This document shows, in pieces, positions 15,845-46,920 of a stretch of 64,000 nt of DNA. Source of the stretch: Octopus sinensis (lineage: Eukaryota); assembly GCF_006345805.1 (NCBI RefSeq), contig NC_042999.1, positions 21,824,001 to 21,888,000 on the forward strand, given 5' to 3'. The position numbers and the translations under genes are program-made. Position 1 is the first letter of the stretch; each line of letters opens with the position of its first letter. Below the pieces are notes generated by a model. It had not been told where the DNA came from. It saw nothing but the letters and a program-made list of their open reading frames with translations, and made no database searches.

Positions 15845-15989
15845 GGTTCCGGGTTCAGTCCCACTGCGTGGCACCTTGGGCAAGCGTCTTCTACTATAGC
15901 CTCGGGTCGACCTAATCCTTGTGAATGGATTTGGTAGACGGAAACTGAAAGAAGCCTGTCGTAAATATGTGTATATATGTGTATATATG

Positions 15990-16022
<33 letters not shown>

Positions 16023-16376
16023 CTGTGTTTTTCCCCCAGCAACATCGCTTAACTATCGATGCTGGTTTGTTTACGTCTGATAATGGCAGGCTTAATGGCA
16101 AAATCAAGCGGCGTAATACGAATTTCAAACATATACTCTTTTACTCTTTTCCTTGTTTCAGTCATTTGACTGCGGCCATGCTAGAGCACCGCCTTTAGTC
16201 GAGCAAATCGACTCCAGGACTTATTCTTTGTTAGCCTAGTACATATTCTATCGGTCTCTCTTGCCGAACCGCTACGTTACGTGGAGACAAACACACCAGC
16301 ATTGGTTGTCAAGCGATGCTAGAGGAACAAACACAGACACAGAAACATACACACACACACACACACACACAGACAG

Positions 16377-16432
<56 letters not shown>

Positions 16433-16591
16433 GACGGGCTTCTTTCAGTTTCCGTCTACCAAATTCATTCACAAGGCTTTGGTCGACCCGAGGCTATAGT
16501 AGAAGACACCCAAGGTGCCACGCAATGGGACTGCCACCCGGAACCATGTGGTTGGTAAGCAAGCTACTTACCACATAGCGACTCCTGCGCC
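15845..16591. mobile_element. Two S2 SINEs in opposite orientation
   Basis: S2 body (CACCTTGGGCAAG..CTACTATAGCCTCGGG, internal (TA)n(TG)n) on + at 15845-16080 and on - at 16135-16591. Confidence 0.85.
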
Positions 16592-18139: not shown

Positions 18140-18518
18140 AATGTGAAGTATATTTGCCACTTAAATGTGGCTAACCACTAAGGGTGGGTGTTACTGTAGC
18201 TTGTAGACACAGGAGAACATCATCTCCAGCTGGCTATTGACCACTGGAAAAAGGATATATGCATTTACATTGGGACCCCTTCGCATCGAAGACCGGAGAT
18301 TGTCGTCCGCTGATGACAGGTAAATACACAGAAACCCGGGTCCGTGCGCATCACGTCAGGCCGATGATGGGAAGGATGGCTTCCCTTTGCAAATACTGAT
18401 AGGGCACAGAAAGTGTGTCAATAGCCAGCTGGAGAAGATGTTCTCCTGGGGCTAAAAGCTACAGTAGCATCCACCCTTAGTGGTTAGCCACATTTAAGTG
18501 GCAAATATACTTCACATT
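18140..18518 (+). mobile_element. PLE-type element: about 100-bp inverted arms around a hammerhead-like motif
   Basis: Arms 18140-18241 / 18417-18518; CTGATGA 18310-16, GAAA CCCGG GTC 18331-42 (palindromic stem III); stems I and II decayed. Confidence 0.7.
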
Positions 18519-24192: not shown

Positions 24193-24195
<3 letters not shown>

Positions 24196-24467
24196 TTAAG
24201 AGCTCCCAAATAAGGAAGCCTAGTGCTAGGGACGCAAAAAGGGATAAATTCATCGAAGACGAAAATAAAAAACATCTAATGGTAAATGTTTTTGATTTTC
24301 ACTGTTGATGAATTTATCCCTTTTTGTGTCCCTAGCACTAGGCTTCCTTCTTTGGGTGCCCTTAATTATATTTCTATATGAATAATATATTGTCTAATGA
24401 CTAATTCGTCTTTTGTGCAAGGCCACTGGTAATAATAATCTATGTTATTACCCTTTTTGATTATATC

Positions 24468-24470
<3 letters not shown>
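24193..24470 (+). mobile_element. Inverted-repeat plus tail cassette in (AT)n
   Basis: Imperfect hairpin about 24195-24365, then tail with GGCCACTGGT and a terminal hairpin. Confidence 0.7.
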
Positions 24471-24520
<50 letters not shown>

Positions 24521-24812
24521 ATAGTAGAGGGAAACCACTATGTGGACACCCTTATGCTAGAAATAGATCCGCTATGGTCTTACCACTAAGAAATGTTCTC
24601 AAATTTTTCTTCAGAACATTTCTTAGTGTTAAGACCATAGCGAATCTATTTCTAACATAAGGGTGACCGCATAGTGGTTTCCCTCTAATATGTATATAAT
24701 ATCAATTTTACTGAACCTTCAGTTTTTTTATATGGTAGACCACTGGTGTGAAATCGATGTTAATTAAATTAATATCTAATTTCTCACTCTCATTTAAAAT
24801 TTAAATCTCTCT
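24521..24812 (+). mobile_element. Inverted-repeat plus tail cassette in (AT)n
   Basis: Hairpin about 24524-24689, then tail with AGACCACTGGT and a terminal hairpin. Confidence 0.7.
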
Positions 24813-24847
24813 CTATATATATATATTTATATATATATATGCAATAT

Positions 24848-25254
24848 CATATGTGGCAATTAGTCGGTTGCCATAATAAGACTCCGAGTTTCGGATATCG
24901 GGGCGGAAATCTGCTCCGGCATCTCGTCAGTTATTAAGACAAACAAAAATGCTATGACAATAACCGCTAAACAAAGGGAAATTACTTTGAAGATGATCTT
25001 ATTAAGACTTAGCTTCTTTATTTGTCTTAATAACGGTCATCTTCTTAGTAATTTCCCTTTGTTTAACGGTCGTTTTCATAACATTTTTGTTTGTCTTAAT
25101 AACCGACAAGATGCCGGAGCAGATTTCCACTCAGACATCAGAAACTCGGAATTTTATTATGGCAACCGAATAATTGTCACATATTATGTTACAGATAAAT
25201 CCCTCTATTTATACAATAGCGAGGTCGCATTCATTATTTTGTTGTCATACTATT

Positions 25255-26891: not shown

Positions 26892-27389
26892 GGATCTTTA
26901 CCCTTTGAACGGCAGATCGAGAAATTAGCTTTTTGTAATTAAACACTTTCAAACTTCGTACACTAGTAGAATGTGTCATATAAAACACCTTTTACTCTTA
27001 GTGTTGTTGAGAAAAACCCTAACCCTAACCCTAACCCTAAAACCGTAACCCTAACGCTAAGACACTAACCCTAAAACCTTAAAGCGAAAACCAGTACAAA
27101 CGCACGAACGATGTCATAAATAACAGTGACAAGCAAAATATACACCGCCAGTTGTTGTTGACAAGCAACAGCAGTAATTTTATTCAGCTGAATACACGTC
27201 ATTGATTGGTTGAAATTACGGAAATATGACAAATTTAGCACGAAATAACTTTGAATATATAAACTTTTCTCAACAACACTAAGAGTAAAAGATGTTTTAT
27301 ATGACACATTCTACCAGTGTCCGAATTTTGAAAGTTTTTAGTTACAAAAAGATTAATTTCTCAATCTGCCGGTCAAAGGGAAACGATCC
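26892..27389. mobile_element. Mutator-like MITE with about 125-bp TIRs and internal (CCCTAA)n
   Basis: GGATC..GATCC ends, long TIRs, flanks GGATGGTG / GGATGATG, telomeric repeats 27015-27072. Confidence 0.8.
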
Positions 27390-38452: not shown

Positions 38453-40164
38453 ATATATACACACATACGATAAGAAAGTTACCTTTGGTTTTACGTCTAT
38501 TCTTACTCCTAGCAATATACACGATTTATTAAATCCATTAACCTTTTTATTAATGGAGGCAAGAATACAGTTTTTAAACTAAACTTACCGTACTTAACAT
38601 GCTAGATGTTATGCCCTATTTGGGTGCCAATTGATACAGGCCTTACTGCAAACCTTCTGCTGTACACTTATAATGTTAAAAGATCCTAGTTAAGCGTTTT
38701 AGTAAGAGGATATCGAACCTGTCCTCGAATAAAGACACTTTCCCACACTGCGGCCTCCTATTACAACGAGGATTTGACTGCCAGCGTGTTTAAGAATCGC
38801 TTCTCTAATATGCCATAAGGTACGTACGATTATTTAATAGACACAACTTTTCATTGAGTCGTGTACTCAGTGTAAAAAAGATTTTTATGAGCGCCGCCTA
38901 AATCCCACACAGATGTACGATGGTAGGTTTAGCACACAGAGGTAGGTTTGGCAGTGAGTGCCCAACAGGTTGTCTATGTCACTCCGAGGCAGCAGCAGTA
39001 GCAGCAGCAACAGTAGCACCAACAACATAAGGAGACATAACAGAAATATCTTGGATCAACGGAACGTCTTTTAAGCTACACAGCTTCTCTATTAGGATCG
39101 CAGTGAGGCGCAACGTTATGTATTTAGCCAACTACATATGACGTTGAAGACAAACAGGAACGTCGTACAAGATTAAATGGAAGCTGAGACAGTCTGGACT
39201 ATACCTCTACGGAAGCAGACGTTCAAGAACTCCACGATTTTTTCTAATTTTGCCTTAGCAGTTTGTACCAACCAACTCTTTTAAAAATAAAATTTATGTA
39301 GGACAATATAAAAGATCAATGAATCAGACGTCTCAAGAAAAGAATTTTCCCTGATCAGCTAAGAATTAAAGAGGTCAAGCATATAGACTTTTGTAGCCAA
39401 CTGCCAAGTATTTTGGACATCTAATAAGCCTAGTAATCATATGCGATAAGAGAGTTAATGATTTTTTCATACTGTGAGTACTACGAACTTGTACTATTCG
39501 CCTCAAATATATATATAATTTAGAAATTATTTTCTCCTTCTGTCATAAGAAGCTCCCCGTAATATTTTCTATTATATCACAATGCTTCAAGCGAACTACC
39601 AAAATCTTCATGCAAGTAAATACCTAACACCGTATTTAAACAGATTAACTCTTGATGAAAATAATTGTAAAAGTCATACTGTTGATGTATTGTTTCTTGT
39701 TTCAGATCTGGGATGAAAAGAATCTTCTACGCTGATTGGTGGAAATAAACGTGTACTGGATTCACAAACATATACATGGATTTGGCAGCAATGATAGAGG
39801 TTTAATTTTATACATCTAATCGATATTATTTCCAAATTTCTAGTACCATATTTCGAATCATTTTAGTTTTTTTTGTTGTTTTTTTGGGGGTTGTTTTGTT
39901 TTTATTGCATGATCTAATAAATAAGCATCTTATATTAACTCATCGATATGATTCAAAGAATTTTAAAGAAAAAAAGTTAATGAAATAATAATTCATATAG
40001 CAAATTTTAAGAGCGGCATTAGCCTTCGTAAACAACGTTCCGATTATTGTGGCATCGTGAAATTTTGAAACAATATTTTAAAACTATGTCTAATAAAGAG
40101 AATGGTGAATTCAAATGAACACTGTGAAATTTGAAATATCCTGATAATTATTTATGGGATAAAT

Positions 40165-42255
40165 ATGGCTCTTTGTGATCCCTTAATAAGATTAATTGTT
40201 TTAAAAGTTATAATTGGATTTATTGTTATATCAACTGCCGAAGGATATTGTGAATGTAATACACACGAATGCTTTTGCGAAAATTTATCCTATATACCAA
40301 AGTTCCCAGCCAACACGACGATTGTAAAAATTATAAATCCGACATTTTCGAAATTTGATTCTAAAACCTTGTGGAACTTAACTACTATACATTTAACAAA
40401 ATTGTCATTTATAGGATGTGTATTTCGAAATGCAACTGAATATGTTTTTGCAAAATTGATCCTCCTAGAACATCTTAATTTCAAGCTGTGTAAATTGACC
40501 CAACACACCTTGCAACAAATCTTTCGCAGTATTTCAAGTATCAATATAACTTCGTTAGAATTTGATGGAGTCAACAAAAACAACTGGTCATTCCAATTTT
40601 TACAAGACATTACAAATTACAATATTAATAGATTTTGTGTAAGGAGATCCAAAATAAAAGTATTTAACGGTAGCGAGCTTCTACCCTTAAAGAATTTAAA
40701 ACTACTTGATTTAAGATTTAATAGCATTACTAAAGTTGTATCTTGGGGAACACACCCATTTCTAACAGCTCTGAATTTATATGGAAACTTCATATGCTAT
40801 ATGGTTCACTTTGTGGATACTAGCGGAAGAATCTCATTTCCCATGTTGGTACGTTTAGAAATCTCTTTATATCATTGGCATATTCTGGCCATTGGAACAT
40901 TCAAAGGACTGAATAAGGTAAAAACATTAAGCATCAATGCTCCGAGTTTGCGCTTAATTAAGCCAAAAGTACTGACTTCTTTAAAAGAATTAGTAAACTT
41001 TTCCCTCACTTCTAGGAAGTCACGCTTATTACAATTGGGCAAACATGCATTTCAGAGTACAACTTTACGTTCGCTGACATTGAGAAATATTACATTAGAG
41101 ATCCCAAAATCAAATTTGAGCGGTATATTTAAAGCATGCCGGAATATCACTTCACTGAAATTTCAAGCTGTATCCATCAATGGAAATGCATCCATAAATG
41201 ATCTTTTAAAGGATTTAAAAAACCTTGAATATTTAGAGCTAACAAGAAATATCATGAGAAATGTTCCAGATTGTGTATGCGATATGAAAAGGCTTCATAC
41301 GCTTATCCTTTCGAGAACATGGATAAGAAAATGGCAAACTACTAACTGCACTGTGATGAACAATTTAAGGGTATTTTCATTGTCGTATAATAAAATATTT
41401 AACGTTAATAAGACCTCTTTCTCTAAAGCTCTCTTCTCTAATACGAACCTTAAATGGGATCTTTCCCATAATTCTTACATGTGCAACTGTCGAATACTAT
41501 GGTTTAGAGACTGGATGAAACGAAATCCAGCGCGAATTTTACATTATCCTAAATCATATTTATGTCACAACCCTGCTCCAGTGAGATTCATCCAGATTGC
41601 TAAATACTATGTTTCGTGGGATTATTGTGCAAGCATATCGAAGCCATCGCCCATAGCTGTGTCAGGTTGTGTGCTTGGAACACTTTCTGTTATTTTTATC
41701 ATCACTGGACTAGTGTCGTATATAAAAAGATGGTCGATACGATACTGGATTTATCTTGTTTTTGCAAGGAGAAGGAAATACCAACTTCTTGAATGTACGA
41801 GTGAACATAATTATGATGCGTTTGTCTGTTATTCCGGTTCCGATGTTGGATGGGTTACCAAATACTTACTTCCAATACTCGAAGAAGAAAACCATCTTCA
41901 CCTCTGTTTGCATGACAGAGATTTTGCAGTTGGCAATGATATTATTGATAATATTATAGATAGTATTCAGCAGAGTCGTAAAGTGGTGCTGGTATTATCT
42001 TCTGATTTTGCGCAAAGTCAATGGTGTCAATTTGAGACTAGTCTTGCACAGCAACGGTTATTTGAAGAGAAACAGGATATAATCGTACCAATACTTCTTG
42101 AAGAAATACCGACTGAATTACAGACCATGAGACTGGCTCTACTACTTAAACAGAAAACGTACTTAGAATGGTCCAGTGAAAGACGTGGTCAAATGATGTT
42201 TTGGGAACGCCTCGTTGAAATTCTCCTGGAAACAGCAACATACAAGGAAATTTAA
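40165..42255 (+). CDS. Toll-like receptor, 696 aa, single coding exon
   Basis: Hydrophobic signal peptide, LRRs (LKNLKLLDLRFNSI, LKNLEYLELTRNIM, LRVFSLSYNKI), LRR-CT (LSHNSYMCNCRILWF..C..P), TM helix (IAVSGCVLGTLSVIFIITGLVSYI), TIR domain (YDAFVCYS, LCLHDRDFAVG, SQWCQFE, TYLEW, FWERL). AATAAA at 42574. Confidence 0.97.
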   Translation: MALCDPLIRLIVLKVIIGFIVISTAEGYCECNTHECFCENLSYIPKFPANTTIVKIINPTFSKFDSKTLWNLTTIHLTKLSFIGCVFRNATEYVFAKLILLEHLNFKLCKLTQHTLQQIFRSISSINITSLEFDGVNKNNWSFQFLQDITNYNINRFCVRRSKIKVFNGSELLPLKNLKLLDLRFNSITKVVSWGTHPFLTALNLYGNFICYMVHFVDTSGRISFPMLVRLEISLYHWHILAIGTFKGLNKVKTLSINAPSLRLIKPKVLTSLKELVNFSLTSRKSRLLQLGKHAFQSTTLRSLTLRNITLEIPKSNLSGIFKACRNITSLKFQAVSINGNASINDLLKDLKNLEYLELTRNIMRNVPDCVCDMKRLHTLILSRTWIRKWQTTNCTVMNNLRVFSLSYNKIFNVNKTSFSKALFSNTNLKWDLSHNSYMCNCRILWFRDWMKRNPARILHYPKSYLCHNPAPVRFIQIAKYYVSWDYCASISKPSPIAVSGCVLGTLSVIFIITGLVSYIKRWSIRYWIYLVFARRRKYQLLECTSEHNYDAFVCYSGSDVGWVTKYLLPILEEENHLHLCLHDRDFAVGNDIIDNIIDSIQQSRKVVLVLSSDFAQSQWCQFETSLAQQRLFEEKQDIIVPILLEEIPTELQTMRLALLLKQKTYLEWSSERRGQMMFWERLVEILLETATYKEI

Positions 42256-46801: not shown

Positions 46802-46920
46802 TTATCTGGCTATATCTCGTTGAAAGCACCGGTTCTCGTCCGATCACTGAAGTTAAGCAACGTTGAGCCTAGTTAGTACTTAGATGGGTGACCGCTTGGG
46901 AAACCTAGGTGCTGTAAGCG
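46802..46920 (+). pseudogene. 5S rRNA pseudogene (dispersed copy)
   Basis: About 119 nt matching animal 5S (GTTGAAAGCACCGGTTCTCGTCCGATCACTGAAGTTAAGCAACG..AGTTAGTACTTAGATGGGTGACCGCTTGGGAA..GGTGCTGTAAGC). Damaged 5' end, transitions, no oligo-T terminator. Confidence 0.9.

Follow-up and report, generated by a model that had tools for sequence, protein, structure and literature searches.

What structured end do several (TA)n-flanked repeats in this stretch of octopus DNA have in common, and what might read it? The window analyzed here, that is, the whole 64,000-nt stretch of Octopus sinensis contig NC_042999.1 (positions 21,824,001 to 21,888,000), is rich in (TA)n. A preliminary description held that four or five unrelated families in it share one 3'-terminal layout, in which a helix (P1) closes a junction of two hairpins and is followed by a CCACT linker and a terminal hairpin (P4), and interpreted the layout as an RNA cis-element of Penelope-like elements (PLEs) that matches no named motif. 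The last point is borne out by an Rfam search of the window, which matched 5S rRNA only (46802-46920, + strand; 96 bits). Elsewhere the window contains a 706-aa reading frame of the Toll-like receptor type, free of interruptions and with both LRR and TIR domains (40135-42255, +), further long inverted-arm pairs that are possibly PLE-type insertions (15886-16507, 18140-18518, and 26922-27358), and a fragment of another abundant repeat ending at (TA)n (56560-56760, +), relatives of which have, as judged by eye, a hammerhead-like GAAGAGCGTAGGCTCGAAAC stretch.

Copies 1-4 of the motif score 59-107 bits with a covariance model (R1) built from genomic relatives, and WAGRCCACTRGT, allowing one mismatch, has 7 matches in the window compared with 1.34 expected. 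The motif strings lie where they were described, except for the linker of copy 4, which is at 56498-56502. Copies 1-3 sit within long fold-backs whose arms are 84-99% complementary, and copy 4 likewise has an inverted arm; we call the two places at which arms end sites a and b. Copy 1 (family A1) comprises an arm ending at site a that holds the whole motif (365-564, -; 97% identity to the 507-bp A1 unit) and an inverted arm ending at site b (565-663, +), then (TA)n at 664-710. On the minus strand it consists of the P1 5' strand (500-508), hairpin P2 (473-497), then CTTA and site b, hairpin P3 with a UUCG loop (436-447), the P1 3' strand (418-426), the CCACT linker, predicted to be unpaired (413-417), and terminal hairpin P4 (383-412), then CTTA and site a; its fold is the one originally drawn (z -4.3). 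Copy 2 (family B2) has an inverted arm ending at site b (24194-24278, -) and an arm ending at site a (24277-24474, +; 95% identity to the 438-bp B2 unit, 96 bits with model R1), with P1 at 24331-24338 and 24415-24422, P2 at 24341-24360, P3 at 24392-24401, the linker at 24423-24427, and P4 at 24428-24452 (all +). In copy 3 (family A3), the inverted arm ending at site b (24514-24602, -) keeps an intact P1 5' strand (24553-24561), and the arm ending at site a (24601-24806, +; 93% identity to the 534-bp A3 unit, 107 bits) contains P1 at 24651-24659 and 24731-24739, P2 at 24660-24684, P3 at 24710-24723, the linker at 24740-24744, and P4 at 24745-24788. Right behind copy 3, in the same (TA)n cluster, lies another 177-nt fold-back of a different family (24820-25213). 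Copy 4 (family B4) pairs an inverted arm ending at site b (56333-56424, -) with an arm ending at site a that is truncated before the P1 5' strand (56422-56551, +; 89% identity to the 489-bp B4 unit, 59 bits) and contains P3 (56467-56476), the P1 3' strand (56490-56497), the linker, and P4 (56503-56538).

Several details of the layout needed revision. P1 of copy 2 pairs with one private A-A mismatch, and that of copy 3 has lost one G-C pair and is absent from the predicted fold, the family form being intact in both cases. The 5' P1 strand of copy 4, described as decayed, is kept in the inverted arm (56405-56413), the sense arm being 5'-truncated at about -71. The compensatory change in the outer P1 pairs between copies 1 and 2 (T-A to C-G) proves to be a true subfamily trait with U-G intermediates, and the junction stands, with two to three hairpins rather than always two. 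We drop the fifth proposed copy (38470-38606, -) from the motif because the covariance model gives no match on its strand at E ≤ 10 and because of its relatives, of which we find seven, all weak: none has the 5' TCTAGCA (0/7), and P1, CCACT, and P4 are not conserved there; the 3' half of a hammerhead, GAAACCAAWGGTA, is present in them; and some sit downstream of a decayed Hydra-type GIY-YIG ORF end. They also have TAGAC.TGAAACCAAWGGTAACT in common, and the whole hammerhead is visible in a better-kept relative (L459). To judge from these relatives, copy 5 is the decayed 3' end of a Hydra-clade PLE, with the 3' half of its hammerhead at 38480-38499, and the supposed terminal hairpin is half a hammerhead.

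The motif is abundant in the 2.72-Gb genome: the core 13-mer CTAGACCACTGGT has 3,556 exact matches compared with 46 for the reversed control, and a pattern requiring both P1 ends has 6,038 compared with 59, a count that includes some second-CTAG or inverted-arm matches and misses mutated copies. These copy numbers are exact pattern matches rather than covariance-model hits. The carriers are ORF-less tandem units, 49 distinct ones in six families (438-540 bp), with full unit lengths, taken from tandem arrays, of 507 (A1), 534 (A3), 438 (B2), 489 (B4), 512 (C), and 536 bp (F). About 70-115 nt upstream of P1, the units have a type I hammerhead pattern, whose stem II carries a long insert (stem II domain of 33-80 nt) and whose stem III is palindromic. 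Five of the six family units pass a hammerhead descriptor, and A3 fails with the core CCGATGA; in a young A3 subfamily (L206, L208, and L263), CCGATGA replaces the hammerhead core CTGATGA. Most motif instances are truncated, and the hammerhead is kept in 53 of 347, with a palindromic stem III in 48 of these 53. For PLE hammerheads, a helix III that is palindromic and a base separating positions 9 and 10.1 have been described (PMC4209133). In seven loci searched against Rfam at E ≤ 0.5, neither these hammerheads nor the motif were detected, and hits were all sub-threshold, mostly miRNA-type hairpins on microsatellites.

On the evidence of their sequences, copies 1-4 are 5'-truncated fold-back insertions of retrozyme-type elements, and the carriers are non-autonomous. 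Metazoan non-LTR retrozymes are ORF-less tandem units of a few hundred base pairs, each with a type I hammerhead, for which mobilization by PLEs has been proposed (PMC7229834; bioRxiv 10.64898/2026.07.22.740005). The octopus units resemble them in these respects and differ in their length of 438-536 bp, their stem II domain, and their tail and conserved end structure, neither of which, like the octopus itself, features in the available portions of those descriptions. The class of element is known already, and the end structure and its link to two start sites are what we did not find in print: the openly available literature searched describes retrozymes, PLE hammerheads, and the tail but yielded no octopus retrozyme or conserved end structure, and the accessible part of an octopus repeat annotation does not mention ribozymes (PMC13282606).

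The families are not as unrelated as was thought. Global alignment of whole units against shuffles joins A1 with A3 (copies 1 and 3; z 14), B2 with B4 (copies 2 and 4; z 12), and B4 with C (z 15), giving two homologous lineages, A (A1, A3, and F) and B (B2, B4, and C). Between lineages, alignment of the hammerhead-to-P1 spacer scores no better than shuffles (z -0.9 to 1.4) and that of the other spacer little better (z -0.1 to 1.9; 3.2 for C-F), whereas the motif region is kept (z 2.1-6.4). From these unit and spacer alignments, the families are homologous, in part closely, and the motif is their best-kept part. Family F (L291-L310), with copies on many chromosomes that are 97-98% identical to the query copy and arrays of 535-bp units, evidently is a very recent burst. 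A more diverged family (L488:3535-3654, +) has the same layout, with a P1 one base shorter, P2 and CTTA, CCACT, and a short P4 and CTTA.

Does P1 covary? We aligned 19 subfamily representatives by MAFFT, picked from clusters as copies with both P1 strands; nine of them belong to A1/A3, two close groups, and several are represented by one copy each. P1 is 95.9% paired, with double changes at five of nine pairs, and none of 500 shuffles, which ignore relatedness, reaches the observed values; slid controls are 24-51% paired. Position 7 is A-U in 10 representatives, G-U in 3, and G-C in 6, position 8 is U-A in 12, C-G in 3, A-U in 2, and G-U in 2, and parsimony on a weakly supported, short-sequence tree built without the P1 columns requires at least 10 Watson-Crick switches at positions 1-8. 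Positions 2 and 5, together with the GG-U base of P4, are invariant and thus give no evidence of covariation. The RNAalifold consensus of the 19 representatives recovers P1 alone, unprompted. P1 contains 15 G-U cells and no A-C cell, which places the fold on the hammerhead strand. We took a second sample of 34 sequences from the first 100 pattern matches listed, chosen to be unlike the known families and with P1 positions 6-8 left free. At these positions, 86 of 105 cells are paired compared with 76.2 after shuffling, and 77 are Watson-Crick compared with 56.3, a value reached in none of 5,000 shuffles that ignore kinship; when seven rows that are truncated, deleted, misanchored, or chance matches are removed, 78 of 84 cells are paired, with P1 predicted for 27 of 28 rows. 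At the level of sequence comparison, the second sample confirms the covariation.

Beyond P1, P2 occurs at the junction start in all 19 predicted folds with a family-specific sequence, and P4 combines a variable body with a GG-U/A-CC base that does not vary, the inner part of P4 being 76% paired in the common alignment, with a pairing probability above 0.8 in 17 of the 19 single folds. The letters of the linker and outer P1 hardly vary; in the junction interior, length, hairpin number, and sequence all vary, and few unpaired bases are fixed. P1, P2, and P4 are predicted to fold and CCACT to stay unpaired. We rejected an alternative ACC-ACT-GGT triloop, which has a probability of at most 0.09 in the 19 folds, and ADAR editing was rejected as the origin of the G-U pairs, the sense strand having no excess of A>G over T>C in six families.

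The motif coincides with the places at which insertions end. We aligned loci to the repeated units and defined zone a as +40 to +80 from the C of the 3' CTAG and zone b as -60 to -15; the loci were picked via the motif, which favors zone a and under-samples b+b. Among 306 element ends, 173 fall in zone a, 95 in zone b, and 38 elsewhere, and 3' ends adjoining a microsatellite lie almost exclusively in the two zones (239/247), which make up about a sixth of the unit, while 5' ends are scattered. Site b lies inside the P1 junction past hairpin P2 and site a past terminal hairpin P4, about 85-110 nt apart, and the ends overlap the TA target by 0-8 nt. In A1, A3, and F, P2 is followed by CT(T/A)A and, 5-9 nt farther on, by site b; in B4 and C, one extra hairpin intervenes between P2 and this site, which makes the spacing rule loose. 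Site a is about 5-20 nt behind P4. CTHW follows P2 in 17 of the 19 representatives (background 31% per 10-nt window) and P4 in 16. Each start site is predicted to lie a few to about 20 nt behind a module of a helix plus CU(A/C/U)(A/U). Of 88 head-to-head insertions, 70 are a+b, 2 are a+a, none is b+b, and in 16 an end falls elsewhere. No insertion is tail-to-tail; independent and equal choice of sites would give about 35 a+a beside 70 a+b. All four window copies are a+b.

This layout (inverted 5'-truncated arm, tail, TA-microsatellite target, and hammerhead) is that of PLEs. Insertions of EN+ PLEs have an inverted 5'-truncated copy and a tail of 30-40 bp at one end, and the Naiad and Hydra clades prefer (TA)n (PMC8557442; PMC3846280). 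The octopus insertions share the inverted, truncated, head-to-head copy, the target, and the tail at one end only (70/88 a+b), and differ in lacking an ORF and in tail length, about 85-110 nt, and in the covarying structure, which the accessible text of those papers does not describe for the PLE tail. A biochemical parallel is the anole Poseidon PAc protein, a predicted dimer that nicks and extends both strands of AT-rich DNA and starts reverse transcription (RT) within a stem-loop, at two internal sites of the RNA that mark the limits of the tail, with hammerhead cleavage not needed and the start site not homologous to the target (PMC11167929). As with PAc, we find two internal sites bounding a tail, in or near a stem-loop downstream of the hammerhead, and, presumably, both target strands extended, and by analogy, the ends seen here may be the same two starts as in the anole PLE. 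Unlike the single AC-rich stem-loop that lies inside the PAc ORF, for which the available text reports no target homology, the octopus motif is a P1-closed junction plus a second hairpin, noncoding, AT-rich, and covarying at family level. The longer tail, and the TA microhomology at several ends set against the non-homologous start of the anole enzyme, count against the reading that we favor below.

Because insertions stop at two fixed places in a conserved, covarying end, the motif likely sets where RT starts, and since the elements encode nothing and conservation surrounds the start sites, it would be what a borrowed enzyme should read. We therefore favor, with a probability of roughly two in three, the reading that the motif is a conserved, covarying 3' end that brings in a Penelope-like RT/GIY-YIG enzyme in trans and determines the two sites at which the enzyme starts. 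The earlier proposal of a PLE cis-element is in this sense supported, most likely for RT recognition, by the PLE layout, the covariation of P1, and the position of both ends in the motif. Protection of the 3' end, also suggested at first, gains little support because the motif is internal to the hammerhead-cut monomer in the tandem unit.

Other explanations account for part of these observations. The letters could matter as duplex DNA recognized by the GIY-YIG endonuclease or used in resolving an insertion intermediate, with the helices secondary; the near-invariance of the linker and outer P1 letters would fit, the near-palindrome ACCA-C-TGGT would suit a dimer and recurs in another context in family E, described below, and in Drosophila virilis Penelope plasmids the tail is needed for endonuclease recognition (cited in PMC11167929). 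We consider this improbable, as double changes in P1 and strand-polarized G-U pairs are meaningless in duplex DNA and families B2, C, and F lack an intact palindrome. That the fold instead serves the RNA's own life, through circle stability, a free hammerhead, or the end of transcription, the insertion ends being unpaired UA-rich RNA annealing to nicked (TA)n, is also unlikely. The frequent TA overlaps of 1-8 nt at ends and the high degree of pairing predicted for animal retrozyme circles (PMC7229834) speak for it, but the units are AT-rich all over, yet their ends are confined to the two zones, strict a+b pairing requires coordination, and a helix plus CTHW precedes both ends.

An unclassified self-cleaving or ligating ribozyme, formed by the P1 junction and CCACT and already raised in the preliminary description, is suggested by a multi-helix junction with an invariant unpaired linker and no Rfam match; with a hammerhead pattern already present in the units and a junction interior that varies in length, hairpins, and sequence and has few fixed unpaired bases, it finds little support, and we regard it as very unlikely. 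Helentron/DINE-type elements are characterized by an inverted repeat, a 3' hairpin, and tandem arrays. All of these are present here, and one could take the carriers for such rolling-circle DNA elements, with P1 as subterminal inverted repeat and P4 as 3' hairpin of a fold in ssDNA. The P1 strands, however, are about 85-105 nt apart near one end, and the carriers agree with PLEs in their hammerhead pattern, their 5' truncation at random, their head-to-head arms that have two fixed 3' ends, and their TA-microsatellite targets, which makes this origin extremely improbable.

Under the preferred reading of an end that recruits a PLE enzyme in trans, an autonomous partner might share the motif. The expectation that full-length GIY-YIG PLEs would end in it did not hold at the sampled loci of this genome: none was found among 30 GIY-YIG loci, 30 Hydra RT loci, 30 Poseidon loci, and 12 longer stretches, and model R1 found no autonomous element with the motif end over 100 such PLE loci and 40 more, the strong hits inspected at PLE loci being separate insertions, besides two antisense hits (L484 and L493). 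tblastn with seven PLE proteins against 180 and a further 74 motif-bearing loci revealed no ORF contiguous with the motif, and the three same-strand neighbors are each parted from the element by a microsatellite. The sampled Hydra, Neptune, and Poseidon loci likewise yielded no partner, and the motif is absent from the published ends of Naiad_Ovul, Naiad_Obim, and Hydra-1_Obim. A metagenome scan gave no evidence of the motif outside this genome (90 pattern matches, by rough estimate about chance level; the best of 80 scored 26 bits). Words of A1 are present in sequencing runs of four organisms, and one 536-nt contig (from four runs whose RNA status is a guess) continues from the end of the unit into its beginning, as a tandem array and a circle both would.

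Nearest in layout to the motif is a young PLE family of the Hydra clade in this genome, with an ORF of its own (L160, L165, L058, and L060), which has a hammerhead followed by two fixed (TA)n ends about 70 nt apart and a possible terminal GGT..ACC helix. It differs in having neither a TCTAG/CTAG P1 nor CCACT and in a TACTC/GAGTA stem that lies wholly inside the tail, and its 3' end is unmatched by model R1. In family E (L079, L090, L234, and L246), a small hammerhead element, a TACTC/GAGTA stem encloses ACCACTGGT, and some 75 nt separate the two fixed ends; GAGTA has TACTC on either side of it, which may form a switch. Three copies of the young Hydra-clade family (L161-L163) contain an old hairpin element inside a microsatellite-rich 3' UTR, and a Poseidon-type family (L172-L200) has, as judged by eye, a tRNA-like stretch in the 3' UTR before the hammerhead. 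Borrowing of an RT by way of a shared end has a precedent in the 3' stem-loops common to LINEs and SINEs, such as eel UnaL2 and UnaSINE, in which a helix just upstream of the priming site lets the non-autonomous element use the RT of its partner. That system differs in having one start site at the RNA end, another class of RT, and no inverted arms.

How might one RNA give two starts? A multimeric or circular RNA would bind the enzyme, probably as a dimer, and both strands of the (TA)n target would be nicked, one nick priming at site a and the other at site b with the aid of 0-8 nt of TA microhomology, after which the two truncated cDNAs would be joined head-to-head; P1 and the linker would hold both modules in a fixed geometry. 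More tentatively, and with the odds against it, a single RNA may form a pseudo-symmetric scaffold in which two modules of a helix, CUHW, and a short spacer, clamped by P1 and the five-base linker, dock the two active sites of a dimeric Penelope RT; the nicked strands, each with its own start site, would then be primed in a concerted reaction. If this were true, the PLE tail and head-to-head arms would be explained structurally. PLE RTs are the closest retrotransposon relatives of telomerase, and the scaffold would then play, in a retrotransposon, the part that the template-positioning helices play in telomerase RNA. The only in vitro study of PLE start sites gives the sites of one element, with no general signal. 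The subfamily series described here provides a covariation-backed fold, invariant letters, both start positions, and a near-strict one-a-one-b rule, and thus would offer a mutational map for an assay of target-primed reverse transcription (TPRT) or for a structure, and a handle on the partner enzyme of animal retrozymes.
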